DNA of 64,000 nucleotides. It comes from Blasia pusilla (Eukaryota). How positions within the stretch are numbered: position 1 is the first letter of the stretch; every line of letters starts with the position of its first letter. A model generated the notes under the pieces. The model was not told where the DNA came from and made no database searches. It was given only the letters and a program-made list of their open reading frames with translations. The stretch spans positions 21,080,001 through 21,144,000 of the forward strand of contig CM114271.1 in NCBI GenBank assembly GCA_050084515.1, in the 5' to 3' direction. Below are positions 2,761 through 52,100 of the stretch, piece by piece. The position numbers and the translations under genes are program-made.

Positions 2761-3875
2761 GTAGTTGCTGCCAATGTAGAAGGAATATTGGAAGTTAAAC
2801 ACATGAGACAATGCCAAACCTTATAGCTTTATTTAAGGTTATAAATGCACATTTACAGGCAAGTTGTATTGAGCAGAACTTTCACGCGGGATTGAACATC
2901 TCCTCCACCACGTAGTGCTTCCTTTAGCTAGATGATCAATGTACTATTACCCACCTAGGAGCTACTAACTTGAGTGTGAATTTCTTGAAGTTGGGTGTGA
3001 ATAACGCCCATATTAGCTGCAATGCCATCAATATCCTTTTGCAAACCTCCAGCCTTTACTAAGATAGCACTCACGATAGTAACCAAATTGTGTTCCACGC
3101 CTTCACTAAGACAATGTTCTCTAAGAGAGGAGGTGATCACATCAATTGATCCAGCTCCTTGTTTATTGATCGACTGAAGCTCTTGACTAACATTCACCAC
3201 GAGTGGAAGTGATTTTCGGGGCGGGATGACATTTTTGAGTTGCGATATGAACAATAGATTCTATAGCTCCTAGTCTATGCTCCAAAAGAAACATCCAAAT
3301 ACCACATGCTTGTGTTTGTGCACAAGAAACTTGATCTTTGATACTCATCTTCTCAAAATCCATGGCAGACATCCCCATAAAAGCATCTCCACCTTGCCAA
3401 ACTATGAACTTGGGAACATTCCGAGGTGTGTGTTCAACCACATCATGATTGATTAAGCCCAAAAAAAAATCAACTTTGTCAATGATCCGTGCTCACCACA
3501 TACATGATTAGTGAATGTCCGGATGTTGCCTTGTGGCTCCACTATCCTATTGTAGTTTCCCATTTGTCTACTTCCCGTGAAGATACTAATTGGGTGTGTA
3601 TATCGCCTTGCCTTATTGGAAACTACTTGCACAACCCTAGCCTTCACCCATGTGGGAGAGAATGCCATATTGGCTACCCTTTAATTTTGCTCCAATATAG
3701 TCAATTTTGACACGCCCATCCCTTGCCTTGGCAACATGCTTGGAAACGCTTCGATTCAGACTAAAAATCAGCGTCCGTGCCTCCCTATCTTCAGCCGCCA
3801 ATGCTAACCCTTCTAAGGTTTCCCGCCTATTTCTACTCTTCCACCTTCAACAACTCCATGCAACCACATCCCGTG

Positions 3876-3982
3876 TGTCATGCGAATCCACATCGTCATA
3901 CAACATACATCGCTGACATACCATACTCACATACATACATAACATAGACGAGAGCATCCACAAACACAAGTGTACCACAACT
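3876..3982 (-). repeat. Element A repeat B2 (3' terminal)
   Basis: Direct copy of 4352-4458 lying outside the LTR-like A2 repeat; ends ...CGCATGACA in element sense. Confidence 0.9.
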
Positions 3983-4349
3983 GAAATCCGTGAAAGACCT
4001 ATTGTCATAAAACACTTATAGAATCACATACAATCGAGCCAAACCCACTCCATGATGGGAGAATCCAGGTCAAAGCTTGCGGAAACCACCATAGCCAAGA
4101 GCTCTACTCACTACCAAGGCTAACTCCCAACGCAATAGGCTCAACTCAAAGAACTAATTGTTCTTTGAGTGCACTCCACACTATATCCTCCAACCTAAGA
4201 GCGGGCCCTATTGGAAAAGTCACCCTCAACTGAGTAATCCCCAACCCTATGTATGAAACCGCATCTCTACCTGGACACTATGGCCCTACATAAGGTATGG
4301 CCTCTACTAGCACACTATACTCTACGACATAATCCGTATGGTCATGACA
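3982..4349 (-). repeat. Element A repeat A2 (LTR-like)
   Basis: Ungapped match to 22028-22395, about 25 mismatches in 368 nt by hand (~93%); starts TGTCATGAC in element sense. Confidence 0.95.
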
Positions 4350-4351
4350 CT

Positions 4352-4458
4352 TGTCGTACAAATCTACATTATCATACAACATACATCGTTGACATACCAT
4401 ACTTACATACATACATAACATAGATGAGAGCATCCACAAACACAAGTGTACCACAACT
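4352..4458 (-). repeat. Element A repeat B1 (internal)
   Basis: Copy of 3876-3982; joined to A2 by ...TACGACA-AG-TGTCATG in element sense. Confidence 0.9.
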
Positions 4459-4656
4459 CGTCCCCCTAACTGGCGGTTAGGTCCCTCTAACTCCCAGGTA
4501 GCCCTATACATCTACTACATGCTATACACCTTAGTGGGTGCACGAACCTACAAATCGATGGTCGATAACCTCCACCCCGAATGGTTGCCTACCGCAACGT
4601 ATCCCTGTGTTGAGCAATGGCAAGATTCTCCAACCAAACCAAAGATTCTCAAAGAT

Positions 4657-7259: not shown

Positions 7260-8235
7260 GTTGACGCTGCTTGGCCATCCCAAGACTCAAAATCCAGGTC
7301 AAAAAATTCAGGTCCATGGCCTGACCCAACAGATGACGTCGTGAAGCCTAAAAAATGGAAGCAACCGCTGTCACACCAGTAGCAAATCCCATCGCACGCT
7401 CTCTCTCATCAGCGTTAGGCTCCACCAACTGTCGCACATGAGAATCCCATACAAGCCCGTGACCACCTTCCCTGTAGGCATGTGATGAGGGAAAACTCAC
7501 AAATATGGGTAGTGCCATCCTAGGTTGGCCCACACGACTCACCACTGCCATGGATGACCAATCAATAACCCTCACCACCTGAGAAAGTCGCCCAATATCC
7601 AAGATACTATCCACTGTAGGGCAAGGATCCCGCTGCACTGCATCATATGCTCGACGTAGAACCTCCCTAGGCAACAAGTTTGTCCACCACAAGCGTGGAC
7701 GATGTGCACGCGAGCCAACTCGCGCTGCATCCAACAACACCGCTGGTCCAGTCCAAGACCGCACCTCATGAACACTCGCCATCATCCGGGTCCGAGTGTC
7801 ACCCAACAATGGAACATTCTCTAGAATGTAAGTTGGAGCACATGCTTGATGAACCTGAAGATGTCGTAACACCTGTAACATCTCCCAAAACAATCGAGAC
7901 CTAGGGTTGTGTAATCCCTCACCACGACTAGCACGTGTATGAACATGACATGGCCATCTAGCAATCACCAAATCCACAGGACCAACCCTCTCAAGGTCAT
8001 GCGCCCCCAACAATGCAATGTGTGACGGCAAAGCACGCTGGTACCCACGAATAGTTGATGGCGGCAACAACTCAAGATATCTCCGCATCAACTGACCAAT
8101 ATATCGGGATGAGACTCTCTGGGCCGTCTCATCTCGCTCCACATACACGTATCTCCACACAAGAATACCGGCCTGCAACACTGCAGCCAAACCAGTGCTA
8201 ATCCCACCGAAGAGATCTAACACACAAATGCCCTC
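7260..8235 (-). pseudogene. Element A C5 cytosine DNA methyltransferase domain (DNMT3-like, unpermuted)
   Basis: Motif I VLDLFGGI, II YVERD, IV DLVIA(R)WPC, VI ILENV, VIII RAHRPRLWWTN, IX ERERAMGF, X LLGQAMD (after a frameshift in an A-run near 7350). Confidence 0.92.
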
Positions 8236-8394
8236 CGGCGGATACTACCATATAATGGGTGTAGTATCCAAAGGGGATAACCCAACTGGACCAGAAGTAG
8301 GAGTCCGCCATTGGACCTCCTCTTCCTTGTGAGGTATAATAGCCTCACACCAAGCCTCCTACACTAGGCGATCAGCCTCATGCCGAAGTGCACC

Positions 8395-8880
8395 TGTCAC
8401 ATCTGAGTAGCCGATAGGCCGAGATCTATCGTAGATAGGGCATAGGAGCCAACGGACTATCTTGATTGTAACTTTGTCCCATAGTGTCGGATGAGGTTGA
8501 GGATAGGTCCATTGTGTCAGGAACGTTGTTTCTGACAACTTTCATGTTGAGGTCGTTCACAACCGGATGACTTGTTGACCAGGTCACCCGCCCTTGGTAA
8601 CCTGTGCGCGCAGGTTACCAAGGGGAGAGTTATTTTTAGGGCAAGAGCCAAAAGGCTCTTCCCAACCCTATATAAGAGAGGAAGGTGGCTTTCCTAAGCC
8701 ATCTTTCTCATGTTGGGCCGTTGGAGCACCTCTCTTGTATGTGTGTGAGATAAGACTAGGGTGCTAGCGTCCGGATTCCTTGATAGCATAGGGTGGATAA
8801 GGCTCGATATGTCAATGTAGATTGAGGAGTGGAGTTTTAGGCCGGATGTGCCATTTTTACTACTCTTTATTTTTACATGA
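8395..8880 (+). repeat. Element B repeat A1 (LTR-like)
   Basis: Near-identical to 17325-17808; TATA-like CTATATAAG at ~8668. Confidence 0.95.
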
Positions 8881-9612
8881 GAAAGATGTCAGGGGGCTGG
8901 TGGGATTTGTTGTTTGCAGGTAGGCAAGCGAGTTGCCTTGGTCGGGAGCCTGTGGAGACGTTGGTTGGCGTTGTATTTGTCATTTTTCTGTTTGGAAGAT
9001 TGTGTGCGGGAGCGCTGCTCATTTTTCTCAGAATTTTGCGGGTAACGGATTAGAGTAGAGCAGCATCAGAGTGGCGGACAGGGTGCTTGAGTGTAGCACA
9101 GAGTGTAGCATTGACGGGAGAACGGCCCATGTCGAGAAAGGAGGGCTTTACCTTGCAGTTGCCTGGGGGCTGTTAAGTAAAGACGGCTAGCTAGGTCGCG
9201 GCCGGTCTAGGGTTAGGTCACGGGCGAGGGACCGGAGGACCACAAAGTTGGAAGCCAAGGGTCGCAAGGTTGCAGACAGGCAGACGAGACGAGAGAAGGA
9301 GCCGCGTGGCAATAGGGGGGGGGGCAGCGCATAGGGTCGTGTGCCCACATGCTGATGGCTGAGAGCCGGGCAGCAAGGCAGAGTATGCCGAAGCCGGGCA
9401 ACTGCATAGGGCAGCGAACGGGGTCCGAAGGAGTTGAGGACGCACAAGGGAATCCACAAGCTAGGGCGCCGGGTTGCGAGAGTAGTAGCCAGAAGCTGAG
9501 AGTGTGAAGCTGGGATTAGGGGTACAAACGCATAGGGCTACGTGCCCTCCACGGGCCCTGTAGGCCCAAGGCCGCGGTAGAGAGAGGGTCGCGGGAACTG
9601 AGGAGTTCCTAA

Positions 9613-10004
9613 GGATGAGGTTGAGGATAGGTCCATTGTGTCAGGAACGTCGTTTCTGACAACTTTCATGTTGAGGTCTTTTACAGTCGGGTGACTTGTT
9701 GACCAAGTCACCCGCCCCTGGTAACGTGTGCGCGCAGGTTACCAAGGGGAGGGCTATTTTTAGGGAAAGAGCCAAAAGGCTCTTCCCAACCCTATATAAG
9801 AGAGGAAGGTGGCTTTCCTGAGCCATCTTTCTCATGTTGGGCCGTTGGAGCACCTCTCTTGTATGTGTGTGAGATAGGACTAGGGTGCTAGCGTCTGGAT
9901 TCCTTGATAGCACAGGGTGGACAAGGCTCGATATGTCGATGTAGATTGAGGAGTGGAGTTTTAGGCCGGATGTGCCATTTTTACTACTCTTTATTTTTAC
10001 ATGA
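9613..10004 (+). repeat. Extra internal, 5'-truncated copy of element B repeat A
   Basis: GGATGAGGTTGAGGATAGG...TTTTTACATGA matches 8489-8880. Confidence 0.92.
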
Positions 10005-10668
10005 TGCTACCCCCCCCCTTCTTTTGGACGTGGTTGCGTGGGTGCGCATGGGCAACGTGGTGGAGTTGCAGGGGCTGAACGTGGTAGCGGAGTCCGACAT
10101 GGTACCACAGTTGGAGGGAGTGACGTGGTAAAGTCAGATGTAGTCGGAAGGGAAGACATGGTTGGGATCCGACCTGGGTTATATGCCGCGTGTGGGGATG
10201 GACGGAGAGGTTTGCGCGACATGATGTTTTTGGGGCGCGACCAGGCGTTGCGAGAGTTGACGATGGAGGGGCGGTGCGCATGATGCCGACAGGTTGTCCG
10301 CATTTGTTGACGGGAGGATCGACGTGTTGGTGCAGGAGAGTGTTGTGTTGCAGAGATTATCATATCACGTGGAGGAGTGTATGTTGACGGTGCAGCAGGT
10401 TGGAGGGCGTGATTAGGTTATCCATTCGAGTCCCTTTTCCCGCACTTGTCGTGTATGATTGAGAGTGTTGGGTATCGGGTAGTAGTTGGTGCTAGGTGGG
10501 TGCAGCGATGGTGATGAGTGTAGATTATTTTCATGTGTAGCATGTTGGTGGATATACGGCGGTTACCAGTGAAGAGCTACCTCGACATCCATCTGTGGCT
10601 GGATCGTCATCACTAGACACTCGGTTTGGTGATGAGATCGCAGACAGAGAGAGTAGTACTTGGGAGGA

Positions 10669-12990
10669 GATGGACGACATGGGCCATCGGGGCATGCGTC
10701 GTTTCTCGGGTGCAAAGGGCACCATCGACTTAGATGATTTTATCTAGGAGTTTGACACGTGGTGCGACTTCCAAGAGATACGCACCCCGACACGGTTCAA
10801 CCCTGTCATGGCATGGAAGGGGTTGTTCCAACACTTGGAGGGTCCTCCGATGGATGACTACATGGAGTTTTGATCACTATATTCAGTAGAGATCGATGCC
10901 TGGAGGATGTATTGGGCTCCAGGCATGTGTCCACTGGTGGTCGTGAGGCATATGATGGGATTGTGAGAGGAGAGAGACCCACACCATCAGCCCGATGACT
11001 AGATGGAGAGTAGGGTAGTGAGACAGGCGATGTGGTAGAGACCTCTGGTGGTAGAGGGCCACCTAGCTTCAGCCCCACAGTGGAGTTCTTCTGACAGTTG
11101 GGGAAGAGCTACCAGGGCGTACGCACTGACAAGCTGAAGGGTCTAAAGGATTTTCAACGACGATTGGGTGAGAGTCTGAGAGATGCATTCACACGCATGA
11201 GGAGGCTGATCATTGCTACGTACGGAGTGACTGAGGCGCAGTCACTCAAGTATTGGTACGGGGTTCTGGACCGAGAACTACGGAGGAGAGTCCGAGATGC
11301 GGTGCTGATTCACACAACGAGGCCACATTGAAGGTGGTCTTTGAGTTGTCTGAGCGTATTGAGCTCAACATGAGTGAGGAGCAAGTAGTGATCGCTGGAT
11401 TTTCTCGAGAGTCGACAGGTCCACGAGCGACGGTGACCCCACAGGTGCCACATCGAGCACCAGTACCACGAGAGCGGGCCAGTGTGCCCAGAGAGCAGGG
11501 CGGGTACCGTGAGCCTATGAGGCAACGACCCGTACCTACATATGTTGGTCTTGTTGGACGTGTGGAGGGGCCCATAGGCAAAGAGACTTCCCACAGCATG
11601 GAAGAGGACCACCAGCGCCTCCGATTGCTCAGGAGCCATAGAGGATGACCCCACCATAGCACTTGTGTGACTATTGCCACAGATATGGTCACACTAGGGA
11701 TAGATGTTTGACCTTTGCCGAGGGGCACGTCTAGAGGTATGCCGAGGGCCTAAGGGCGGTCGTCCTGGAGGAGGTCAGGGAGTCCTTCCTGGACGTGGTG
11801 GTAGAGGACCACCACCAGCCAGAGGAGATGGAGTAGGAGCACCAGAGCCAAAACTTCTCTCACACATCGATCAGTTGGAGCAGAGGATTGCTGCCATGAC
11901 GATGATTAGGGAAGGCACAGAGCTGGAGCAGCTAGTGTGACTCCAACTTCTACCTCTTACCCTAACCCGGGTGAGGATCTGCCAGTATGGGATTTATGTG
12001 TAGTGCAGCCCAGGTTGAGGCAGCAGCAATGGTGACTCGGGGTGCTGCGAGAGGCATTGAGCCATCGAGAGGTGGAGTTGAGATTGACCCACCAGAGGGG
12101 ACCGATGGGCGGCAGGCGAGGGTTCCACAATCATTCACATTGTCGGAGGCACTACACACTAGTGGTGCCTACAACTCAGGCACCTACGTTGACGTCACAA
12201 GGAGTTGGAGTGACAACTCCTATGCCGGCTTGAGTGGAGTCAGTGTCAACCATAGTGTTGGAGGTGGCCACCAGAGTGAGTCAGACTCCACTATTTTCTG
12301 CCATAGAGTTGGCGACGTTGGGAGTCGGACCAGTTGAGGTGTTTCGATTGGCGCCATGTTGTGTGAGCGTGGAGAGATGACTGCTTCTTGTTCAGAGGTA
12401 GTTGAGGAGGTGGTGGACTTGCCCTCAGAGCCGGTGCTCGGGATGTTTCCCACAGAGTCATGGCATGCGGCGGTGGCAAAGTTGGTAGATATGCCAGCTC
12501 GACCGGCCATAGAGCAAGCAGTGGTAACACTTGGAGTAGTGTTACTGGATAACCGAGCTGGAGTATTTTGCTTGGTTAGTCCGACAGGGATAGTATACCA
12601 CCCGTAGCGCGTCCTACTTGATTCGGGAGCGCAACCTTTGATGTTAGGGAAGGCGGCGTGTTTAGCGTTGGGATTAGGGAAGGCCGATATTGAGCCTTGT
12701 CCCTTCCAGATACAGACCTCGATTGGGGGCGTGTCATCCACGCAATATATGACTTGAAAAGAGATAGTTGTCAGAGTCCAGCCAGAGCATGCGATGGATA
12801 GTGCTATGGTGCGCACACGTTCGATTACTACACCAGCTGAGTCGTACAATATGTTGGTAGGAAGTACAGTGTTATATCCCCTAGGATTCATCCTAGACTT
12901 CTGGGAGGAGACCGTTGTTTATCGACCAGGGTGGCGGTCAGGTGACAGCCGGATGAGTCAGTTATCCTTGCAGTTTGCGGGACGAGGTGG
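10669..12990 (+). pseudogene. Element B gag (zinc knuckles) + aspartic protease
   Basis: EFDTWCD...AWKGLFQHLEGPPMD shared with A; CX2CX4HX4C knuckle CDYCHRYGHTRDRC at ~11666; protease LLDSGAQPLML at ~12615 and YNMLVG. Confidence 0.85.
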
Positions 12991-13074
12991 TCGATAACGA
13001 AGTGAGTCTGTGATCACGTTGGCGGTAGTGATCCTGCAACTAACACTTCCTAAGGTGAGTCTGTGATCACGTTT

Positions 13075-13790
13075 GTGATTGCTGGATGGCCATGTGAGGG
13101 TCATTCATCAGCTGGCCGAGGATTCGGATTGCAGGATCCGAGGTCAAGGATGTTTTGGGAGATGCTGCGAGTAGTATGACACTTGCAGGAGAGTCAGACA
13201 TGTTCTCCAACGTATATCTTGGAGAATGTGCCATTGTTGGAAGACACTTGTGCACGTGTGATGACAAGTGTGTATCAGGTGAGGTCCTGGTTGGGACCTA
13301 CTGTATTATTAGATGCGGCGAGAGTTGGATCACGTGCCCATCGTCCACGACTTTGGTGGACAAACCTGATACCATCAGAGGTATTGAGTCGAGCATACGA
13401 TGGAGTCCAGAGAGCACCACATCTCACAATGGATGCTATTTTGGGCTCAGGGCGTCGATCTCAGGTGGTGACACGGGATGATAGACCACCGTTGGCCATG
13501 GCCAATAGGGTGGGGGAGTTGAGGGCAGCCTTACCTACGTTGGTGAGCTTACCAGCATCCCATGCCTTTCGTCAGGGAGGGCAAGGCATGATTTGGGATG
13601 AGGTGACTGGAGCATTGGAGGAGCCTACAGCAGATGAGCGCGAGCGCGCCATGGGGTTCGCTACTGGTACTACGGCGGTGCCAGGGATGACTGAGGCATC
13701 CCGGTGACAGGTGTTGGGGTAGGCGATGGACCTCAACTGTCTCACATGGATAGTCAGCCTAGGTATGGCTGAGCAGAGACGGATGCGAGT
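13075..13790 (+). pseudogene. Element B DNMT domain, motifs IV-X only
   Basis: VIAGWPCEGH, ILENV, RAHRPRLWWTN, ERERAMGF, LG*AMD; motifs I-III are deleted. Confidence 0.9.
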
Positions 13791-14069
13791 GTCATCCATG
13801 CCGTCACGTCCACGAGTTGGACCATTGCCCTCGAAGTGGTCATACGAGGCATTGGTGGGGCGAGACGAGGAGAGATAGGCACCCATGGACTTCCTGGGAC
13901 GTCGTTCAAGCAGAGAGTGCAAAGGCGGCGAGAGTAGCACATGTTCATTTTTGGATGCGGAGCATAGTGTAGGAGGTCTGAGTGGAGTGGCTGTTGCGGA
14001 GGTTGCTAGGGTTGCTACATATCAACCAAAGCCGGAGGTTGCGTCCTCTCCGAGTGAGGTCACGATGGA

Positions 14070-15480
14070 GACTTGGGAGCCTGTGATAGGTCTCAAGTTG
14101 ATAGGAGGAGAGCGACGTCGAGTTCATAGGTTTCTGAGAGGGCATGTCAGTTGTTTTGCCTTCAGTATGAGAGACTTGGGTACGCTGAAGGGTCCCGGGA
14201 TACGAATTGAGTTGGCTAGTGATATGCCGATCTTTCGTCGACCCTACAGGTATTCTGATATGGAGCAAGCCTTGATTTGAGCAAGAGTCAGGACTTGTTG
14301 GAGGCAGGACTTGTGGAGTTATCACATGGGGAGTATGCATCTGCCACAGTCATGTTGGCAAAGAAGGATATGTGTGGCAATTGGACGGATAGCTAAGCGG
14401 ATCTGTGGAGATTACCATCCTATCAACCGATCAGATCGGTACGCCATGCCTACTCCTGATGAGATCTTTGATGCGGTAGGGCATGCAAAGATCTTCAGTA
14501 CTTTAGATCTCCGTGCTGGCTATAATCAGCTTCCTATCAAGTGGGATAGATCGGTTCGGGAGAGATTGCTTGTATCAGTGGCGGTTCTTACCATTTGGGT
14601 TGAAGAACGCGCCTGTAGAGTTTCAGAGAGTAATGGATAGGATTTTGGCTGGCTTGGATTTTGTACGATGTTACATAGATGATATTCTTATCTTCAGTTC
14701 CACGGTTGAGGAGCATGAGCGACACTTGGAGGAGGTGTTTCGGCGATTGCGGTTACATGGACTAAAGTTACATCCAGGCAAGTGCAGATTCTTTCAAGAG
14801 TAGAATGAGTACTTGGGACACACTATATACCCGAGTGGGTCAGGCGTTTAGCAGACGAAGGTAGAGGCTATTGCATAGATTCCACGCCCTACAGATGTGA
14901 GTCGAGTTCGAGTATTTCTTGGACTGGAGAACTTGTATCGACGGTATGTCAAGGGTTTTAGTGCGATCGCAAAGTCTTTGACCTTGTTGACGAGACTTGA
15001 TCAGGTTTGGTTATGGGGAGATGATCAGGAGAAAGCATTTCAGGAGCTCAAGGATAGGTTGACGTCCTCACCCATTTTACACAGACCGGTTAGGGGTCGC
15101 CCATTCCTGTTACATACGGATTGGAGCATGTTGGGTCTAGGAGCAATGCTTACTCAAAGGGATGACGAGGAGAGGGAGTTCGTTGTGGCTTATGCGAGCC
15201 GATCGAACAACATTGCAGAGGCAAAGTAAAGCTCCTATGAGGGAGAGTGCTTGGCTGTAGTGTGGGCCGTGGCACATTTCAGGTGCTATTTATTTGGAAA
15301 CTCTTTCACACTTATCACTGATCATCAGCCGTTGAGGTGGTTGATGGAGTCCGACAAGCTTACGAGAAAGCTTGCCAAGTGGGCTCTATTACTACAGGAG
15401 TATGAGTTGAGGTGGTTCATAGGTCAGGTCGGCTGAACCAGGATGCCAATGGGTTGAGTTGTAACCCATGTCCGAGTCAA
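14070..15480 (+). pseudogene. Element B reverse transcriptase + RNase H
   Basis: ICGDYHPIN, STLDLRAGYNQL, LPFGLKNAP, YIDD, LHTDWS, TDHQPL; several stops and frameshifts. Confidence 0.93.
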
Positions 15481-15699
15481 AGAGACAACACAGGAGCTCG
15501 ATGGCACGGAGAGAGTGATGAGGAGATGGTGCCCGGTTGGCATGCATCTGCCTATCTTTGTTGGTTGACTATGGCGTGTCACCACGGTGATGACTCGGTG
15601 GTGGGGTTGGATGATGAGTCTTTGGATCCGGAGGTAAGTGAGGGCGACTGGTGGTCGTGATATCCATGACGACGTGGAGGTTGTGGAGTTCTTGCGACC

Positions 15700-16920
15700 T
15701 TTGGCGTCATTGCGAGTCTGATGAGTGCTAGGGAGCGGGATCGGATCCTATAGAGAGCCAAAAGGTTCAGGTGGGAGGGGACTCACATTTTGCGGGTATG
15801 GGGAGATGGTAGGATATGAGTGGTACCTCATCCTTCCCAGCGAGCACGTGTACTACGACATGCCCATGAGGAGTTGGGACATTTCGGAGTAAAGCGTACT
15901 TACAGCTTACTCCAGGTTCAGTATTGGTGGTGCGGCATGCATATTGGGGTACAACAGTTTGTGGCCAGATGTATGGTATGTGACAGAGTGCGAGCATCCT
16001 TCAATGCTCCCACTCCGCAGTTACATCCTTTTCCGATTATGGGTTTAGGTTATCGGTGGAGTTTAGACTTTGCGGGACCTTTGCCATTGACGGGGCGTCA
16101 TCATAGGTACGTGTTGGTCATGGTGGAGCATTTCTCCAAGTGGATAGAGTTGGTGGCACTACCAGACAAGGCAAGCGAGGGAACAACTTATGCGTTTCTA
16201 GATTGTGTGCTTAGTCACTTTGGTGCACCGGCGGAGGTGTTGACTGACCAGGGTACCGAGTTCAGGGGAGAGTTTCAGGCCTTGTGTGATGAGGCGTTGA
16301 TAGATCACCGCACCACGTCCAGAGATCATCTAGAGGTGGATGGGTTGGCGGAGAGAGTGGTATAGACGGTGAAGAGAGGATTACGCAAGTATGGCTTGCA
16401 GCAGGGACAGTTGAGGGAGTGGGACCTACAGTTGCCACGGTTGGCTATGGGTTATCGCTTTAGTCGGCAGGCATCCTTGACGTCGTTTTCACTGTATTTT
16501 TTGCTCTTTGGGAGAGAGCCAGATTTACTTGCAGCGATTCGACGTGACATGGCGGAGGTGTTAGATCTTGATGATCCAGATGTGTGGGTACAAGCATGTT
16601 CTTAGAGGGCGGAGGTTTTTCGTAGAGTTATGCCTATGGCCTTTGAGAACTTAGCTATTGCCCAACATAGAGATACGTTGAGGTACGCGACCATTTGTGG
16701 AGGAGGTTATCATCCAAGGATTAGGAGGTTTCATCTTGGAGATTAGGTGTATTTACAGCAAGTGGCACCCACTAGCGCTAGATCCTTTGCAGGCGCACGA
16801 TCCCGTGTGTGCGCGAGGTATTACCGACCAGAGTCCTCATGTTGGAGGGACGGGATGGTATGGTTTGGAAGGATCATGTGCACAATTGTGTGCCATGTCA
16901 TCTTTCAAACGTAGATGGGA
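15700..16920 (+). pseudogene. Element B DDE integrase
   Basis: HAHEELGH...CMVC zinc domain; catalytic D-D-E in WSLDFAGP, LTDQGTEF and GLAERVV. Confidence 0.93.
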
Positions 16921-16961
16921 CGGTGGATCCGAGCTTGGCAGTAGTACCTACAGGCTTGAGG

Positions 16962-17108
16962 TGTATGTTGTGCGGATCTGCGAGGGATGTAGCCACCATG
17001 TTGGTATGTGATGGTTGTTCTCGAGGGTGGCAGATGTCATGTCTGACCCCCCTCAGACATGACATCTGCCATGTCACGGGATGATGGATGTGTCCGAGAT
17101 GTGTATAG
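16962..17108 (+). pseudogene. PHD finger at the C-terminus of the element B polyprotein
   Basis: CMLC...MLVCDGCSRGW(Q)MSCL...WMCPRC fits the C4-H-C3 pattern with His replaced by Gln and one internal stop. Confidence 0.85.
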
Positions 17109-17184
17109 GGTAGTAGGTCATGTCAGAGAGATGCGATATTTTATATCTGGAGTTGGGGGGATCCAACTGCCAGCTAGGAAGGCG

Positions 17185-17322
17185 GTTGTGTGATCTCCAT
17201 GTATTTGTATGAGTTGATTTTTGTACATGTGTGGATCGACCCGTGTTTGGGGAAGATCGGTGTTGTGTGGTGTAGATGTAACCAGCGATGTATGTTGTGT
17301 AGCGATATGTATGCGCACGATA
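17185..17322 (+). repeat. Element B repeat B1 (internal)
   Basis: 17282-17320 recurs at 17834-17872. The 5' limit is inferred from homology to the A-element B1 boundary. Junction to A2 is ...CACGATA-GC-TGTCAC. Confidence 0.7.
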
Positions 17323-17324
17323 GC

Positions 17325-17808
17325 TGTCACGTCTGAGTAGCCGAAAGGTCGAGATCTATCGTGGATAGGGCGTAGGAGCCAACGGACTATCTTGAGTGTA
17401 ACTTTGTCCCACGGTGTCGGATGAGGTTGAGAATAGGTCCATTGTGTCAGGAACATCGTTTTTGACAACTTTCATGTTGAGGTCTTTCACAGCTGGATGA
17501 CTTGTTGACCAAGTCACCCGCCCCTGGTGACCTGTGCGCGCAGGTTACCAAGGGGAGGGCTATTTTTAGGGGAAGAGCCAAAAGGCTCTTCCCAACCCTA
17601 TATAAGAGAGGAAGGTGGCTTTCCTAAGTCATCTTTCTCATGTTGGGTCGTTGGAGCACCTCTCTTGTATGTGTGTGAGATAGGACTAGGGTGCTAGCGT
17701 CTGGATTCCTTGATAGCACAGGGTGGACGAGGCTCGATATGTCGATGTAGATTGAGGAGTGGAGTTTTAGGCCGGATATGCCATTTTTACTACTCTTTAT
17801 TTTTCATG
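17325..17808 (+). repeat. Element B repeat A2 (LTR-like)
   Basis: Matches 8395-8879. Confidence 0.95.
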
Positions 17809-17833
17809 TAAAAATAAAGAGTAGTAAAAATTG

Positions 17834-17872
17834 CCAACGATGTATGTTGTGTAGCAAGATGTATGCGCACGA
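17834..17872 (+). repeat. Element B repeat B2 (truncated, 3' terminal)
   Basis: CCAACGATGTATGTTGTGTAGCAAGATGTATGCGCACGA vs CCAGCGATGTATGTTGTGTAGCGATATGTATGCGCACGA at 17282. Confidence 0.85.
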
Positions 17873-18227
17873 GTGGTCACATCAGCCGAGTCGTATGATG
17901 TACTAGTTGGAGGATCTATTGTACCCGATGGGTTTTTAGATGGACTACTAGACTGAGACAGCGTCTTATAGACCTGGTTGGCAGTCCAGGGATGGACATA
18001 TGAGCCAGGTTCCTTTGAGATTTATTTATGGGGCTTGACCAGGAGGGTCTTCCCCAACGGTGTTAGCATCTGTGGCTAGTTTTAGTGGAGTAGTCACTTG
18101 GCCATGAGACTTTTTGGAGGGTAATCTTTTTGCTATGGATTCTCCTGTGCATGAGGAGGTAGAGGAGGTCCCTAGTCTTGCAGCAGTGGCATCCTCATCG
18201 TTGGATGTGCCACTTTGGAGTTCATGT
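17873..18227 (+). other. Inverted segment of element A (protease C-terminus and spacer)
   Basis: Plus-strand VVTSAESYDVLVGG...VPLWSSC bridges minus-strand DSSRLGVP (ending ~18228) and GALRHEADRLV (starting 8394), in the same order as in element C. Confidence 0.85.
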
Positions 18228-20350: not shown

Positions 20351-22027
20351 ATGGAGCTGCAACACTCAATAACAACATAGAAGACTCGGTGTTTGGAACA
20401 CCCTCGTCCTCCTCTTCATCAACCGTCGAAAGTGGGAAAGGTAGCCGATACTTCAATCCACTCCGTGTAAAACCACCACTGTCCGCACCACGGTCCTCAA
20501 CCAGATCAACAGACAACTCCGTAATGACCAATTCCGATGCCGCACCACCACCAAATCACCACCACTAAGTAACCAAGTGACGTCGATGTTGCTGTACTAT
20601 TCTAGCTCTACTAGCTATGGGTGTAGGCAACCTAACCTGTCATCACCACAAGAAGCCTCCCACGGTCTACTGGTTATCACTCCAACCTCACTACCGGTAG
20701 CATACAAGAGTAAAACTACTCTGGAAAGCAGCGTCAACCCTAACAATGGGCACGCAAGCAAGAAGCAATGATGGAGGGGATCCAAACACAGGAAGTCCAA
20801 CGACAACCCTCCAATCGCAAATGGAAATCAAGGTAACACAATCCACCAAACGTGGCGCCCCCTAAATCCACAGAACCCACCACACAATTCTAACGCAATA
20901 GCTACTCCGCCGCTGGTCGATGACGTGCTAGTCGGACTCGCAGCACCTGAAAATATCACATGCATGGAGAGGCTACACCGTACTATACGCTAGAGGTCCA
21001 TCAACCAAAAACCTGAGATGCATAAAGCGCCTAACACATCTCCGAACATCACCAAATGAGCTACACCAATGTGTACACTGGCATAATTAAGAACTCAGCA
21101 GTTAAGCATCTTCCAAGCAGAATAGCCCAAAGATGGGTGACCAATTATGCAATACTCAACTAAGAAATCTGCAAAAACTACCTCACGCCCAAGCAAGCAT
21201 GCTTGCTCGCTTGCTTCTTGCTCCTTACTCCGCCTCTCACGCCCACTCGCCCCGAGCTACCACGAGTTGCCTCGAAGCCTCAAAACGCCGAGACATGCCC
21301 CGTTTGCCATGCTTCGCTATGGAAAGAGGCCCAACCAGAGCGCCCCCAATGGGATAGGCTTTCCAACAACGGACGAATCACCAACCAACCAGCCCCTCCA
21401 ATCTGCTGTCCACCATAGCCACACCTTGAGCTAGTCCAAAATTTCGATCAGCAATCACTCCATAAATAGTCAACCAAAATTGAATTTGTTTCAACTAGAA
21501 TTCAATTAGCCGCCATAGCTATCTCTCCACAAAAATCAGCTACAACCAAAATCTGTACTCCGAGCTAAAAATCAGACAAACTTGCTATCCATACACCTCC
21601 AGAATCGTAAATCCGACAGCGCTTCCGCCCAGATTCATGCACACAGAAATCCGCAATGCTCCATACACTCAAGCAGATAGCTTCACATGAGATCACAATA
21701 CAGGTAGCAACAGAAACCTCTCACCCAATCTGGATGAACTTCAACAGAGCTTCCGCACTCCAAGCTCTCCACATCAGAAAACCGTCAAACACAAATCAGA
21801 ATCTTCAATCCTTGATAACTTCCAACTCCCTTGACAAAATCCGGTGATCTAAAGCGCGTTGGAAAGCTCTCAACAAGGCGCTTCTTTCCAACCAACCACG
21901 CACCAGATTCACACCTCCAACATAGGCCACAAGCCACAAACATCCACGGCTGAGTACATAATCAGCCCTAACCAGATCCTACTGATCCATGATCGAAGCT
22001 ACCATCGATCTACTCTAGTTATTTGAG

Positions 22028-22395
22028 TGAAATCCTTGAAAGACCGACTATCATAAAACATATATAGAATCATATACAATCGAGCCAAACCCACTCCAAG
22101 ATGGGAGAATCCAGGTCGAAGCTTGGGGAAACCACCATAGCGAAGAGCTCTATTCACTACCAAGGCTAACTCCCAACGCAACAGGCTCAACTCAAAGAAC
22201 TAACAGTTCTTTGAGTGCACTCCACACTATATCCTCCAACCTAAGAGCCGGCCCTACTGGAAAAGTCACCCTCAACTAAGTAACCCCCGACCCTATGTAT
22301 GAAACCGTATCTCTACCTGGACACTACGGCCCTACATAAGGTATGGCCTCTGCTAGCACACTATACTTTATGACATAATCCGTATGGTCATGACA
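22028..22395 (-). repeat. Element A repeat A1 (5' LTR-like)
   Basis: Matches 3982-4349; followed in element sense by CTCAAATAACTAG, not by a TGG-type PBS. Confidence 0.95.
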
Positions 22396-22741
22396 AGTGC
22401 TTCTTCCATGCATACAAGAAACAATCTATCTTGCATAGTACCTAACCCCTAAGAGAACACAACCGGCCATACTGGTTGAAAGTATTTCAAGTACCTGCGA
22501 AGGCGATGGAAGGGGCTCCCTAAGTAAGCTTAAATAGTTCCTAGGGGGCCGTTACAGGGATAAATAATTAATCCCTAGGGGACCTCTTAAGCAACTACCT
22601 CTATTTCATATAGAATTGACTCTCGCTTAACCCATTATTGGAGGTTAGGGCTGAATAGACGTTGACCTAATACATAATTACGCCCCCCTACAAGCAATAA
22701 TTAATTCCCCCCTCTCAAAGGGCTGCAAACAAGATTTTGGG

Positions 22742-41380: not shown

Positions 41381-44300
41381 ATGAAACTGAGGCCGTTGGC
41401 CCTGAGTTTTGTAAATAGAAGGAAATCAAGGTGGGCAAGCAGTGGTGTTGATGATGAAGGCGACATCACTACTCAAGATGGTACGGTGGACAGATTTGGG
41501 CACCCGGCGTCGAGAAAGAAAACTGGTGGCTGGAGAGCGGTATCGTTTATCTTAGGTTCGAGCTCTTCCGAATTCTTTATGACAGATCTGTTCTGTTTTG
41601 TTTTGGTTTTTTGTGAAGAGCTGATTTGTCTGTGTGCTCAGAGTACCGGACTCTGCCACAATTTCAAAAATCAAAACTGCTTGTGGAGGTACTGGAGTGG
41701 GACATGAACCGGACAGGCTGATCGATATTTCGCTTCTTCCAAGACCTCTGCTGTTCTGACCGGATTTTTCTGATTCGTTATTCTGATATTCTTCAAAACT
41801 TCACTGCAATTTTAATATCAAACCCTTTTGCTTTTGTCGGAGAAAATCCGAACCAATGACCCGAATTTCACTTTTCCTTACATCTCCTCCCTTCCGATGA
41901 GATTCGAATTGATTTGATTCTCAAGAGGAATCTTCCAATACTGACGCAGTTGTGTTCGTTCACTGCAACCATGTCACAGCGGAACAGGGCATGGCAAACG
42001 TTGCCTTCTTCGGTGTCTCCATCAACCTGGTCATATATCTGACCACCGTGATGCATGAGAACAATGCATCAGCGGCGAATAATGTGAGCAATTGGAATGG
42101 AACGGGTTGGGTATTTCCCCTCATAGTCGCCTTCTTTGCGGACTCCTACTTGGGTCGTTTCTGGGGAGCCGTCGTGTCTTCTGTCATCTACACTCTGGTA
42201 ACGAATCTGTCTTTCAACTACCGAGTCCTGTGCATCCCGTTCTTCAGTCATAAAATCGTACGAACTCCGAATCGTGACGATCAGCCTTGAAGCCTGATTT
42301 GATCGTTCATTCTGGCATTAATCGATGACTAGTTTCTACGAGCCCCATAGTGTTAATATACGCGACGGTTGTTAGGAATTATTTTCGCAACTAGTCTCTT
42401 GAGAATGGCGCCGGAGTGACTGGTTTTGAAATTCTGAAGTATCCTCAACAGGATGAGCACATTCTGGTGTACAGCACAAGAGAATTAGTGACTGGATTTT
42501 AGCCTCAGAAAGGACTGGGTCTTCGACGAGTACATGGATTGTGAGCTTCAAAAGTGTAAGGGTTCCATCCGCTAATAAGGAAGTGACTACATGCAGGGTT
42601 TGGTAATGCTGACAGTAGCAGCAAGTGTCGACTCCTTGAGGCCTCCTCAATGCATCACCGAAGATACCAACTGCCAACATGCTTCGTTGGGCCAGACAGC
42701 ATTCCTGTATGCGGGGCTCTACGTAATGGATTTGGGAGCGGGTGGAGTCCAAGGCACCGTCATAGCTTTTGGAGCGGATCAATTTGACGAGGAGGATGAA
42801 AAGGAAACGGAGCAAAAGCCATCGTTCTTCAACTGGTTTTATCAGACGGTCGTAATAGGTTCTCTGATAGCGAGCACGTTCTTCGTATACATTCAGGAGA
42901 ACTTGAGCTGGGGACTAGGATGGGGCATCTCCAGTGGAGCGCAGATGTTGGGAACTTGGTTTCTAGTTCTGGGATTGCCTTTATATCGTTACCACAAGCC
43001 AGGGGGCAATCCTCTGTCGCGCATGTCTCAGGTGGTGGTGGCGGCCGTGCGAAAACGTCGACTTTCGATGAACGTGGACACCCTCTACGAAGTCGAGGAT
43101 ACAGAGTCTACCATCAAGGGTTCTAGAAGGATTCGACATAGCAACAAATTTCCGTATGTAAAATTTCGATGTCCCCGTTTCGAATGTGCTGTAGGAATGT
43201 GAGGCGCAGTGAGGAAGCCCATGTTGAAGGCCTACCGGGGAATTCGGCATAGCTTTGAAGTTCCTAGTATGCATCTAATTCTTCTGAGTTGTATTGCAAT
43301 CTTCTTACAGTATTCTACATATAGAGACACAAAGAGTTCATCTTATTTCTGGGATTGAATTCGGACTTGGTCTGCAATGCCATGTGCGTTTCTGGTCTGG
43401 CCGTCATCGTGAGCGATTGATTCATGTAGACTCGCCGTGTATTTCAGGTTTTTGGACAGGGCAGCTCTCCCGACCGAGAAAGAGAAGGAAGGGTTGGCCT
43501 GTGCAAGCCCATGGTCCCTTTGCACGGTCACACAAGTGGAAGAGCTGAAATTCCTGCTGCGTGTCCTGCCTATCTTCCTCACGGGCATAATGTACACCAC
43601 TTGCTACAGTCAGATGACGACTCTGTTTATCGAACAAGGGTACACGATGGATCGCAGCTTAGGCTCTTTCAAAATCCCCCCCGCCTCTCTCACCGTCTTC
43701 GAAAGTGTGAGCGTTATCTTTTGGGTCATCGTCTACGACCGTGTGTTGGTGCCATGCTTGCGCCGTCGCACTGGGAATCCACGAGGCATCTCAGAGCTGC
43801 AACGCATTGGCATTGGACTGGCCCTATCTGTGCTCTCCATGACTCTTGCTGCGGTTGTGGCGATCGAGCGTCTGCGCGTAGTGAAAGAGCATGGACTTGA
43901 GGACGACACCGAAACTGCTGTTCCCATGAGCGTCTTTTGGGAAATTCCACAGTATTTCGTGCTGGGTGCTTCGGAGGTGTTCACATACATCGGCCAGTTG
44001 GAATTCTTCTACGATCAAGCGCCAGATGCAATTCGAAGCCTTGGCATGTCCTTGTCCATGCTCACAAATGCATTGGGTAACTTCCTGAGTTCCTTGCTGC
44101 TGACCATTGTAAATCACATCACGAGGCAAGGTGGGAAGCCTGGTTGGATCGCCAACAACTTGAATCGTGGGCGTGTCGACCTCTTCTTTTGGCTTCTGGC
44201 GATTCTGAGTTCAATAAATCTCGTTGCTTTCATTTTCTGCGCTAAACGATACCAGTACATAGTCACAGAAGGGCCCATTAATAGGATTCCTGAAGATTCT

Positions 44301-44426
44301 TATATCAAGAAAACAGCCCAAGATCCGACCAGCGACCAGGTTAAGAATGCCAGTGTGGAATCTGCAGCTTCAGCTCCACATCGCGATTCTGCTCTTTCTT
44401 CAAATGCACATCATTCATCATCTTAG
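41381..44426 (+). CDS. NRT1/PTR family (NPF) transporter, NPF7-like, 4 exons, ~642 aa
   Basis: Exons 41381-41555, 41980-42197, 42597-43153 and 43448-44426 with GT-AG introns in consistent phase (1929 nt). Motifs TGGW, FFADSYLGR, AFGADQFD, FFNWFY, CTVTQVEE, EFFYDQAPD. Confidence 0.95.
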
Positions 44427-45949: not shown

Positions 45950-46855
45950 TGCGGGGCTCGAATGTGGTGTCGAGTATAATTCATATGTGAACACACACAA
46001 TTCTTTTAGTTTGATTATGTAACGGCCTCTAAAGATTTTTAAATGAAAGAATGAAAGTTCGTAGTTGTGTCACAATACCCTTCTATAAGGACTCAAATGT
46101 TCCCACGCGGTCAAGGCGGACCTATGTAAACACACGGAATTTGACAACGGAACGGCATCAAAAGAATTTTTAAATGAAAGTTTGTAGTTGTGCCACAATA
46201 CCCCTTTGATCGGGGCTCAAATGTGGGGTCAAGTAAAATTCCCATGCGGACAAGGCGGACATATGTGTTTACATATGTCCAATTATTTTAGCTTGGCAAC
46301 ATAACGTCCTCCGGGTGTGCCACTTTTGAAAGTTTGTAGTTGTGCCACAAGTTCCCACAACACCCCTTTCATCGGGGCTCAAATTTCGGGTCGAGTAAAA
46401 TTCCCACGCGGACAAGAGGGTCTTATGTACGGACATATGTAAACACACACAACCCTTTTAGCTTGACAATGTAACGGCCTCAAAAGATCTTTTAAATGAA
46501 AGTTTGTAGTTGTGCCACAACACCACTTTCATCGGGGCTCAAATGTAGGGTCGAGTAAAATTCCCACATGGACAAGGGGGTCATATGTACGCACATTTGC
46601 AAACATACACAACTCTTTTAGCTTGATAATGTAACGGCCTCAAAAGATCTCTTAAATGAAAGTTTGTAGTTGTGCCACAACACCACTTTCATCAGGGCTC
46701 AAATGTAGGGTCAAATAAAACTCCCATGCAGACAAGGGGGTCCTATGTACGGACATATGTAAACACACACAATTCTCTTAGCTTGAAAATTTAACGGCCT
46801 AAAAGATCTTTTAAATGAATGTTTGTAGTTGTGCCACAACACCCTTTTGATCAAA
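45950..46855 (+). repeat. Tandem repeat, about 6 copies of a ~160-bp unit
   Basis: GTTTGTAGTTGTGCCACAA, or a close variant, at ~46057, 46180, 46332, 46502, 46662 and 46821. Confidence 0.9.
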
Positions 46856-48694: not shown

Positions 48695-48985
48695 TATCAC
48701 ATCATAGTTGATTGATTAGTATAGTTCTACTCTATCACCAATGCTAAGATCATAGGATTGTTTGGATATGACTTTTCCCTACCCGATTGGATGAGGTTGG
48801 TTACAACTCCGTTGAGTAAGGATTAACTTTTCCAAACAACTTCTTTCTTTTTTATCAGGTCTTTTTTACCCAATAACCTACGTATGTAGGTTACCTATTT
48901 TGGCTATATATGGGGGGAGAGCTCTTTTAGCTCTTTTCGTGCGCATACATATCACTATCATTGATCAAACATACAACATAGCGCC
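48695..48985. mobile_element. Relic of terminal repeats from the element-B lineage
   Basis: 48755-48823 aligns ungapped (~65%) to repeat A of B, with TATCACATC at the offset of B's TGTCACATC start. 48937-48957 is a 20/21 reverse complement of the B-repeat end. Confidence 0.6.
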
Positions 48986-49048
48986 CTTATTTATTATGTG
49001 TTACCAAAATATATCCAAGAAATGAAAGTATTTCTCACAAACACAAAA

Positions 49049-49052
<4 letters not shown>

Positions 49053-49133
<81 letters not shown>
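49053..49133 (+). repeat. (CT)n microsatellite, ~40 units
   Basis: Read directly from the sequence. Confidence 0.98.
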
Positions 49134-49136
<3 letters not shown>

Positions 49137-52100
49137 AAACAAAAGCCAATCTCATGGTAAGAGGATTGGGTTACTCACAAGGTAAGAAGCATCATAGTGA
49201 GAATATATAATTCTTCACTTTCCTTCCTATTATCATTGGAGTAATCAAACATGGTTTTGTAAGAATCTGAGAAGAAATGGTTGTGATTGTCCTCGTCACA
49301 TTTGTTGTATGCACCATGTGGATACCAAGGTCGCACATGGAAAAAGGATCCACGGACTTATGTCCATCCCTACAATGGACATACCCGTGGACCGCCCCAA
49401 AGCGCGTAACGTAGACCCAGGCTGGCCGAGCCTATACCTATTTTGTAGCCCGCATGAATCCCCCGCGTAGCCTGCAAGGCGGGGTCAACTCTCATTGGGT
49501 GGGCCTACCACAGACTACTCTCGGGCTTCATGCATGCTACAAAATGGGTACGGGAGGGGGATCCATTGGGCATGTTTATGGACACGTCTGGACTTTTCCG
49601 TTTTCGTGCAATCTTGGTGGATACTCTTTGTCACGCTACAAGAGTCATGAGAGAGAGTGAGAGAGAGGTCTCATCTCATATCATCTCTATATTTAGACTT
49701 CAAGATTTAGTTGGTGAGTATGGTGTTCTTCGTGTATGGATTGTAAGAAAAATGTGTGTTGTATAACGAAGTGCATGTGCACGACATCCCATTGATCATT
49801 TATATTTTACTCATCTAGGCTAATGTTCTAATGTGCATTTTCAACTTTTAATTTAATTTTATAGTTTAGATTCCACTTCAAGTAATTACTCACACATAAC
49901 AAAATGAGAAAATTAGTTCATAATGTCTTACCCATTTCGTTACTTTATTGAAAGAGAATACTTGGTGAAGGAGAATACTATTGGTTGAGATCATGTTTTC
50001 ATGACATTCAAGGAGTATCTTGAATATGATGGAACACTTCAAAACCAAAACCATGGATGTAATGTAATGGATCTTACATATGAGGTGCCATTCATTGCAA
50101 ATGTCATTGGATCTTCTTTCAATTGCTTTGAAAATATTTTTTCTCTTGCTTTGGAAGCTTTGTTATGTGTTTAATTTTAATCATAGACTTTATTTACTAT
50201 GGAGACAAATTTACATGTAACTATTAATTCCACTAGCTTCTTCCACTTTTTCTCTTTTCCTTTCGCTTGAAAATCTTGCTACTTATTTCATTGTTTTCAA
50301 ATTCCCTTGCAGAAAACCAGGTTTCCATATAAGTTTAATCGCATGGATCGGTAGGAGTATGGAAGAAATTAACATCAAGATAGGGAAATTCAATCAAGTC
50401 CCTACAATTGATCTTTGGTAAATCATGAGAGCACCAACGAGTATAGTCAAGTGTGATGACAATTCTAAACCCAATGAAATTATGTCTAACTTCTCCCTCA
50501 AAGCACCGAGATATTTTTTAGGCACGAGTGTGTCACCCATCCAAAGGAAAACTTTTTACTCCATAAACTACTTCATCCAAATTTCATCTAGAATTTTCTT
50601 CATATGAGTTCTTCCATAATTAAAGATTGAAAAAAGTCTTCACATATGTTGTAAATTAAAATCAACCTCATTTCAACCCTCTCCTAAGAATATTGTTCAG
50701 AAATTTTCAAGAAAATGCTCATTATTTAGAAGTTACAAAATATAATGGATGATCTCTCGTTTCAAAAGATATAGTTAAAGCCCATGAAAGGAAGACAACA
50801 TGTGTTAGCCAAGCCTTAGGCCACATATCACCAAAGAGAGGGAACACTACCTCCTAATATCTCAAGTCAAAAGGAGGAAGAAAATGTTGAATTAAATGTC
50901 TGCATGTGATAGGTGAGGTGCACATCTATTTAGCAACATCCACTTTATTATAGTAACAAATCTCAAAAGACGACAAAGATAGGTAATAACATCTCAAAAG
51001 AGGAGGAGTCAAAAAATGCATGATGGAATGTAAAAAGAAAATGGCAACTAGCCAACACAAACACCAACTTAACAAGCTACACAATTGATGGCCTGAAACA
51101 AATTTGACAAGAATACTAGTGGTTGGTTAGACGTGAACTGACCACGAGGCGAGCGACCTCCCACCACTTCGGCACGACGTATCAATATTAAATCTTGAGC
51201 ACATTGTAAGGCCACTAAGATGCATTTCCAAAAATAAGTAGTGATTGTAGAGAGAGAAGGACTACGGTGATGATTCTCGAGGCAATGGTGAGCACATGTT
51301 TTAAGGAAAGTATCAATAGACACATACAAATGATTGAATACTTCCACTATAAAAGGAATAAATTCATCCATTGCATGTCTCACATCATAACTTAATTCCT
51401 TAATTCTTGCTGCTACTTTGGGGCCAAACCTTTGGTATGTACGGCTCAACATACCAAGTCACAACATGTTGGATCAATAACCATCGCATCACCCTTTGTC
51501 TGGAATCCATCACAAGACATAACAAGATCAAGTCTCTAACGAGAGGTTGCTTGTATGGTTGAAGGTAGGACATGAAGTTACTCTTGCCCAACGCTCAGGG
51601 GGGGTCACTATGTGAAAGGCTCTACATCACCTACGACGTTTTAGGGTCTGGGCCCCTAACTTCTAAGTGGAAAAAAAAATTTCTCACCCTTATGTACTTT
51701 AAAGGAGTCATTTTTCATTTTTGGTACCCCTAAAATTCTTTAAGTAAAGCAATCACTTGAAATAAATAAGGCTTTGAAAGAAAAGAAAAGAACCAAGTTA
51801 AGTTAACATCCAACATGTTGTCGTTACCCTATGAAAGAGGGGGATTCAACCCCTAATTAAGCAAGAAGCTCAATCAACCAGTCTGTCATCCCCCTAGCCA
51901 ACTCCCTCCCACTAACCTACTCACAATTCAATAATCTCAAGTACACTCTAAGCACAATCCATGAAAATATTGAATCCAACATGTCTCAAACATAAAAAAA
52001 AAAAAAAACTCACCAAGATCAACTCACACTCTAAATGTATGTAGTCAAAGCATGTAAGTCAACTGAATCAAGTACATATATTCTATCTTGTACCCCTGAT

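Follow-up and report, generated by a model that had tools for sequence, protein, structure and literature searches.

In Blasia pusilla, genomic copies of a set of Gypsy elements have the layout A1-internal-B1-NN-A2-B2, in which a conserved 40-nt motif forms the last 40 nt of repeat B, and in which the right and left ends of the element meet, 2 nt apart, at the B1–A2 border as the palindrome GACA-GC-TGTC. From the positions of the primer sites it is likely that the functional LTR of these elements is the unit B-GC-A, such that the integrase att sites lie inside it as a ready-made palindromic end-to-end junction. With an integrase site inside the terminal repeat, the inserted copies would be circularly permuted.

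Layout and termini of the elements

The window, by which is meant the whole stretch of 64 kb that was analysed, holds two decayed nested Gypsy elements, element B (8395-17872, +) lying within element A (22395-3876, -). Element B opens with its A1 repeat (TGTC..., 8395..8874, +) and a primer-binding site (PBS; 8875..8888, +), which is 14/14 complementary to a predicted self-primer at 8700..8713 (+), ~30 nt downstream of a TATA box (8669-8675). The 5′ leader of this copy is unlike that of the other copies, and an additional partial repeat A is seen in it at 9613-10003. Further along are a C5-methyltransferase-like domain between protease and RT (13072..13776, +; broken in this copy, with a counterpart at 7348-8244, -), the integrase H2C2 zinc finger and DDE core (15820..16365, +) and a C-terminal PHD finger region together with the end of pol (16872..17109, +; E 0.003, below the Pfam cut-off). 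The polypurine tract (PPT; 17176..17184, +) reads AGGAAGGCG here and AGGGGGGCG in most copies, and is followed directly by the first base of the 138-nt B1 repeat (17185..17322, +). The 40-nt motif (17283..17322, +) is the end of this internal B1, its last ~8 nt being the right att half, and a segment complementary to the spacer and the start of A2 (17272..17286, +) is the lower stem of a possible hairpin. The 2-nt spacer GC of the att-att junction GACA-GC-TGTC (17323..17324, +; GACA is GATA in the window copy) leads into A2 (17325..17804, +), which contains the left att half TGTCAC, a TATA box and the R-U5 equivalent. At the right-hand side the A2–B2 join is aberrant (17805..17834, +), with an inverted duplication of the A end and ~100 nt of B2 gone, and the B2 remnant that forms the right end (17835..17872, +) is shortened and rearranged, without its terminal CA and target duplication (TSD). 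By comparison with the loci L051, L055 and L062, the adjoining segment (17872..18224, +) is an inverted piece of the interior of element A, and it was through this local inversion of 17872-18224 that the right duplication of element B was lost.

Element A, all of it on the minus strand, has A1 at 22028..22395, a PBS at 22017..22027 with its partner site at 22191-22201, and a PPT at 4459-4467, directly after which B1 begins (4352..4458, internal motif copy 4391-4352). There follow the 2-nt spacer (4350-4351), A2 (3982..4349) and B2 (3876..3982), the last being the true 3′ terminus and ending in GACA. The two copies of its TSD read CACT (22396-22399) and CACG (3872-3875).

Across the genome, the 30 best copies of the B end have B (~138 nt), then A (480 nt), in most cases a second B, and then unique flank. 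The same layout recurs in family A, in family C, which was located by the junction pattern (121 matches vs 0 in the control), and in family F, which was located through pol DNA without use of the motif. Some loci are variants of it. In three (L022, L094, L009) the B end is joined inverted a few bases into A2, or a third A lies beyond B2, forms that insertion or autointegration close to the junction could have produced. In four others (L057, L202, L207, L212) the flank comes directly after B1, without A2-B2; these are possibly one-LTR-circle products or B1xB2 recombinants, of the putative form A-internal-B, and such single-B forms on metagenome contigs may be assembly collapse. The 5′ ends of two of them, L057 and L212, were not found within 9.5 and 9.2 kb, respectively.

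The termini of the elements are TGTC...GACA, outside which a perfect 4-bp target duplication is present in 21 of the 30 copies with both ends (family B 11/18, family A 4/5, family C 6/7) and a 4-bp duplication with one mismatch in 3 more; both ends had been recovered in 30 of the 39 copies that were extended upstream, and a 5-bp duplication was found in none of the 30. The distant relative L297 also has a 4-bp duplication. At the B1–A2 border the spacing is exactly 2 nt in 141 of the 148 joins measured. The spacer is GC in 92/157 and AC, GT or AT in 57/157, changes that would be expected from deamination of a symmetric CAG/CTG site, and the consensus of the whole junction is (C)ACGACA-GC-TGTCA(C/T)G. 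In retroviral chemistry the integrase removes a dinucleotide at the att ends, and GACA-GC-TGTC has the geometry of two such ends. In this regard, the end of the 40-nt motif is probably the right-hand integrase end, with a predicted cutting site inside the terminal repeat.

Conservation of the 40-nt motif

Positions 17283-17322 match the reverse complement of 3876-3915 at 32/40 positions without gaps, the first 16 being identical. The reported partial recurrence near 48937-48957 is confirmed by an exact 17-nt match at 48937-48953 on the minus strand, the window holding 3 matches where 0.01 are expected; the site is a probable decayed B end of family-C-like type (48937..48957, -). It lies within a wider remnant (48937-49197, -) in which a decayed family-C-like A piece (49002-49197) is followed by the B-end remnant. 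The original prediction placed the motif at the 3′ terminus of its elements, which is the case for element A (3915-3876, the B2 terminus) but not for 17283-17322, which belongs to the internal B1 of element B. Similarly, its description of the repeats as otherwise unalignable holds for positions 41-300 of A and -100 to -41 of B, where no alignment rises above shuffles (z ≤ 1.9; worst pair ≤ 2.8), but not for the start of A, the first ~10 nt of which (TGTCAY) are common to the families and positions 1-40 of which align weakly between some of them (z up to 5.4). With one copy taken per family, the last 40 nt have identities of 72-95% (z 8-17) among families A, B, C and F, above the 71-74% found for pol DNA between families. 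In other words, across four families of this genome the motif is indeed more conserved than neighbouring non-coding sequence.

A set of 80 metagenome loci, of which 65 were examined, yielded 49 rows after the removal of 10 without PPT or core and of 6 duplicates; these rows are redundant and represent some four lineages. Where integrase identity is at least 74%, the upstream 30 nt of the motif are kept (22-27/30) in 12 of 14 rows. They are partly kept in L241 (integrase 71%) and fully kept in L250 (integrase 63%), while the 33 other rows, all at 56-63%, score 6-14/30. Of these 33 distant rows, 31 nevertheless end in 6-7 of the letters CACGACA (script minimum 5), and the junction GACA-GC-TGTCAYG recurs in distant metagenome relatives, the commonest distant lineage having three ACGACAC units in tandem where the upstream 30 nt would be. 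Distant relatives thus keep no more than the last 7-10 nt, which makes the size of the att core ordinary and leaves the remaining 30 nt as accessory sequence. The idea of a recognition site longer than a typical att site therefore applies to one lineage, but not to the relatives at integrase 56-63%, where it fails in 33 of 34 rows. A selected cis element with a role for the integrase is supported as far as the last 7-10 nt are concerned, these being both the 3′ terminus beside the 4-bp TSD and one half of the palindromic junction. A role of the motif in priming is not upheld, as the primer site and PPT are located elsewhere; the motif region had itself been considered as the primer site, and was dropped once the proper PBS and PPT were found. 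The probable position of the att ends inside the reverse-transcribed LTR was no part of the original prediction.

The upstream ~30 nt are most likely a lineage-limited accessory signal. They may tentatively be regarded as a subterminal integrase site and, with slightly less confidence still, as the top of a stem-bulge-stem pairing with the start of A while the DNA is single-stranded. In the near lineage the bases just 5′ of the motif are complementary to the spacer plus the A start of their own family, and representative copies fold into a stem, a 6-7 nt bulge and a stem. Cognate duplexes have -10 to -16 kcal/mol vs -5 to -8 for controls, the specificity of cognate over non-cognate pairing being partial. 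Folds of the whole region are no better than shuffles (z +0.4 to -1.8), and the motif hairpin is absent from the distant lineage. The lineage-limited distribution of the upstream 30 nt would also suit a history, confined to the motif, of recent exchange between co-packaged families without selection, as would the 95% identity of families B and C over the last 40 nt when the remainder is unalignable. This is nonetheless rather unlikely, given that the four families diverge by 5-28% within the motif, each with complements to its own A start, and that a partly diverged form is kept at an integrase identity of 71% (L241). One group of metagenome loci (L221-L244) has a B repeat and motif very near those of family A, with an integrase 74-80% identical, on contigs of other organisms, for which horizontal transfer is possible.

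Primer sites, the A2–B2 join and a proposed route of integration

In families A, B, C and F, as in the metagenome relatives, B1 is immediately preceded by a G-rich tract. At the other border, the first 12 nt 3′ of A1 complement a site ~30 nt past the TATA box at 10 or more of 12 positions in 28 of 29 copies, and at 11 or more in 25, a level reached by 9 of 7800 random 12-mers. The sequences of PBS and partner are unrelated between families A, B and C and the distant L297 (13/13 complementary), and the PBSs do not start with TGG; in L250 the match is degenerate. Judged from sequence, this complementarity at the A1 border is a signature of self-priming of the Tf1 type. In family A (22191-22215, -, in the element A of the window) and in L225, its moss-metagenome relative, a copy of the PBS sequence stands just 5′ of the predicted self-primer, so that a short inverted repeat marks the predicted start. 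With a PPT at the start of B1 and a primer site at the end of A1, reverse transcription should give an LTR of the form B-GC-A, and the att-att junction therefore falls inside that LTR. The ends predicted for such a cDNA would have no TG or CA in common.

The A2–B2 join links exactly these two predicted ends. Counted without joins for which the second anchor was not found, off-length forms make up 31/124 at A2–B2 against 29/406 at control points in A (p 4e-7); with both common family-C forms taken as normal the count is 20/124 (p 0.004 vs controls), and by the strictest count 18 (p 0.018 vs controls). At B1–A2 the figure is 7/148. Primer remnants are retained at A2–B2 in single copies: L104 has 7 nt of the PPT, another copy 9 nt of the PBS, and L189 the PBS together with 159 nt of leader. 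Rare variants common to B2 and its own B1 exceed all 300 shuffles in families A, B and C (34 vs 6.4, 17 vs 5.4 and 34 vs 9.0, respectively), so that in these families B2 was recopied from B1; the older family F has no such excess. An indel-rich join with occasional primer remnants resembles the end-joins of cDNA. Alternatively, the join could be made by a jump of the RT between cDNA ends (a template jump, rolling-circle-like), the integrase then nicking the junction of the new strand. Most A2–B2 joins are exact (44/48 in family A) and one adjoins a T run, which, like the p of 0.018 by the strictest count, weighs against the end-joining reading. The exactness of most joins and the 1-nt microhomology forms in families A and C (TTTCA/AGTTG; TTTA/ATTGG, 12 vs 11) speak for a jump, but the retained pieces of PPT and PBS and the larger deletions suit ligation at least equally, and we regard the jump as unlikely.

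The route that we favour, in which the ends of the cDNA are joined, would run as follows. The RNA would start ~30 nt past the TATA box of A1 and prime itself just 3′ of A1, and the plus strand would initiate at the PPT just 5′ of B1. The linear cDNA would then be BA-internal-BA, with ends that lack att sites. The scars at the junction suggest that its A end is next joined to its B start, whether in a 2-LTR circle or, once the cDNA has been inserted, through repair by the host. Finally, at the junction in the 5′ LTR the integrase would cut after each CA, the cuts being staggered by 2 nt so that the GC is lost, and insertion with a 4-bp stagger would give A-internal-B-GC-A-B with a TSD, which is the end product seen in the genome. 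Joined cDNA ends plus a cut at the 5′ LTR junction thus yield exactly the observed layout, whereas a cut at the other junction yields A-B-GC-A-internal-B.

This other permutation was found at none of 75 loci chosen by the junction alone, 73 of which have pol upstream and 2 unrelated sequence; the census began with 90 junction-pattern loci, of which 76 distinct ones were classified, one being a chance match at a B2 end. This is the main difficulty, since a finished cDNA or circle holds two identical junctions, and the route therefore requires an asymmetry, which counts against it. The 5′ LTR may become double-stranded first, a hairpin may hide the other junction while it is single-stranded, or the element's own methyltransferase may mark the CpG-rich motif. 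A jump of the RT might supply a strand asymmetry of this kind, although on its own it leaves the disuse of the other junction unexplained. In its widest form the proposal, to which we would give a little less than even chances, is that the att sites of a widespread bryophyte and algal Gypsy clade have been relocated to inside the LTR, and that the clade integrates obligately from end-joined circular cDNA by cutting an encoded palindrome, one of the two junctions being chosen with the help of the 40-nt hairpin or of methylation by the element's own methyltransferase.

At 85% likeness, three RNA runs from one study contain 778-943 reads, the majority derived from other copies. Reads over pol have a strong bias to one strand, which fits sense transcription, and a sharp transcript start is absent from the predicted site in all three runs. 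A total of 21 reads span the A2–B2 join, 11 on one strand and 10 on the other. Such reads might indicate replication more like that of DIRS and PAT elements, in which the RNA runs through B2, priming of the minus strand takes place at the 40-nt motif or close to it, and the ends are restored from the split repeats; the folding of the motif with the A start in the near lineage, at the energies given above, would also accord with this. Half of the spanning reads are antisense, however, and the hairpin and 30 of the 40 nt are missing in distant relatives. Moreover, such a scheme accounts neither for the self-complementary PBS at the A1 border, nor for a B start exactly at the PPT, nor for the primer remnants at A2–B2, and we consider it very improbable.

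Relation to known elements

Pol comprises protease, C5-methyltransferase-like, RT, RH, H2C2/DDE integrase and PHD domains. The order PR-RT-RH-IN with H2C2 and DDE is that of Ty3/Gypsy elements, the best PDB match is Ty3-G, and TG...CA ends with a TSD of fixed length (4 bp, 21/30) likewise belong to this class. Its identical terminal LTRs, with a PPT before the 3′ LTR, are not seen, the arrangement being A1...B1-A2-B2 with the PPT 5′ of B1 and not of A2. The split direct repeats are those of DIRS, PAT and Ngaro elements, and a PBS complementary to the predicted RNA 5′ end is a Tf1-type feature. No tyrosine recombinase was found in the 12 ORFs scanned, and a DDE integrase is present. The CG...CG ends and 3-bp TSD of Troyka are not found here.

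The match of the methyltransferase domain to PF00145 is weak (Pfam E 0.001, below cut-off), and most relatives carry PF00145. Relatives with the domain come from Marchantia, Calypogeia, Sphagnum, Riccia and Closterium and from metagenome proteins; among the matches listed (42 and 120, most entries being without an organism name) none is named for Klebsormidium. In two distant proteins (P0034, P0035) the methyltransferase lies between RH and integrase, compared with its position between protease and RT in the Blasia elements, and this change of position is domain shuffling within the clade.

The closest parallel is KnitGypsy-Dnmt3 of Klebsormidium nitens, for which a figure legend gives DIRS-like repeats (A-coding-B-A-B) with Gypsy domains (de Mendoza et al. 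2018, PMC5890265). It shares with the Blasia elements a Gypsy Pol with a cytosine methyltransferase and the A-coding-B-A-B repeats, but the text of PMC5890265 gives no termini, TSD, PBS, PPT or mechanism, and the two are likened by layout and domains only. Gypsy-DNMT3 is mentioned once in the text of a 2026 preprint (10.64898/2026.05.21.726589), and Gypsy-7a of Chlamydomonas, with PHD and LTR subparts (PMC9940879), is a lead only. The A-B-A-B layout is therefore already known, and its mechanism is apparently undescribed; in a search of openly available papers, no account of termini or mechanism was found for the clade.

Tf1/Sushi and Tcn1 elements also have a PBS complementary to the predicted RNA 5′ end and not to a tRNA, but are described with ordinary paired LTRs and terminal att sites, and the Blasia elements have a PHD finger, not a chromodomain (PMC4600332, PMC6317226). 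PAT and Ngaro elements share the A-B-A-B layout, and their junction is believed to reflect that of a circle, but they are described as using a tyrosine recombinase, in contrast to the DDE integrase, TG...CA ends, 4-bp TSD, PPT and PBS found here (PMC7192593). Troyka resembles the Blasia elements as an LTR element with atypical ends; these are CG...CG with a 3-bp TSD, and it is reported from animals only (PMC12440569). As to chemistry, HIV-1 integrase tetramers cleave the palindromic 2-LTR junction in vitro (PMC1905944), and in retroviruses linear DNA is held to be the sole precursor and circles are regarded as dead ends (PMC3148978). The likeness would be in the palindromic CA-spacer-TG, cut by a DDE integrase, and in the end-joined cDNA (PMC1905944, PMC3148978). 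As described, the retroviral junction is a side product made by ligation, whereas in the Blasia elements the LTR itself would encode the att junction, with the ligated join at another place. At circle junctions of the IS3/IS30 type a DDE enzyme likewise acts on abutted ends with a 2-3 nt spacer, although these are DNA transposons, in which the junction is built in each cycle and there is no reverse transcription.

Retroviral-type integrases are taken to act solely on linear cDNA that has att sites at its termini, and integration of 2-LTR circles is considered disproven for retroviruses. If the proposal is true, a successful family in which every copy is permuted would be a natural system where the circle-junction route is the normal one, that is, natural circle-based integration by a retroviral-type integrase, testable using short oligonucleotides. 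Such a system would also point to the way in which ordinary LTRs gave rise to split direct repeats, and would account for these abundant bryophyte elements being missed or wrongly delimited by LTR finders.

Elsewhere in the window, a third, C-like element of the clade (59791-64000, and L133) runs beyond the window's end, with its A2 at ~67264-67748 and further copies of A and B beyond that. A 158-nt mini-element of a further family (49629..49786, +; TGTCACG...GCACGACA) has both family termini, the flanks TCTT/TCCC and 2 weak relatives genome-wide, and is possibly a deleted solo A-B of another family. Rfam gave nothing near gathering scores over 16900-18000, and no tRNA genes were found in the 64-kb window. 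Tandem repeats with a unit of ~160 nt occupy 45982-46852, and an exon of a PTR2/POT transporter gene lies at 43413-44426 (+).
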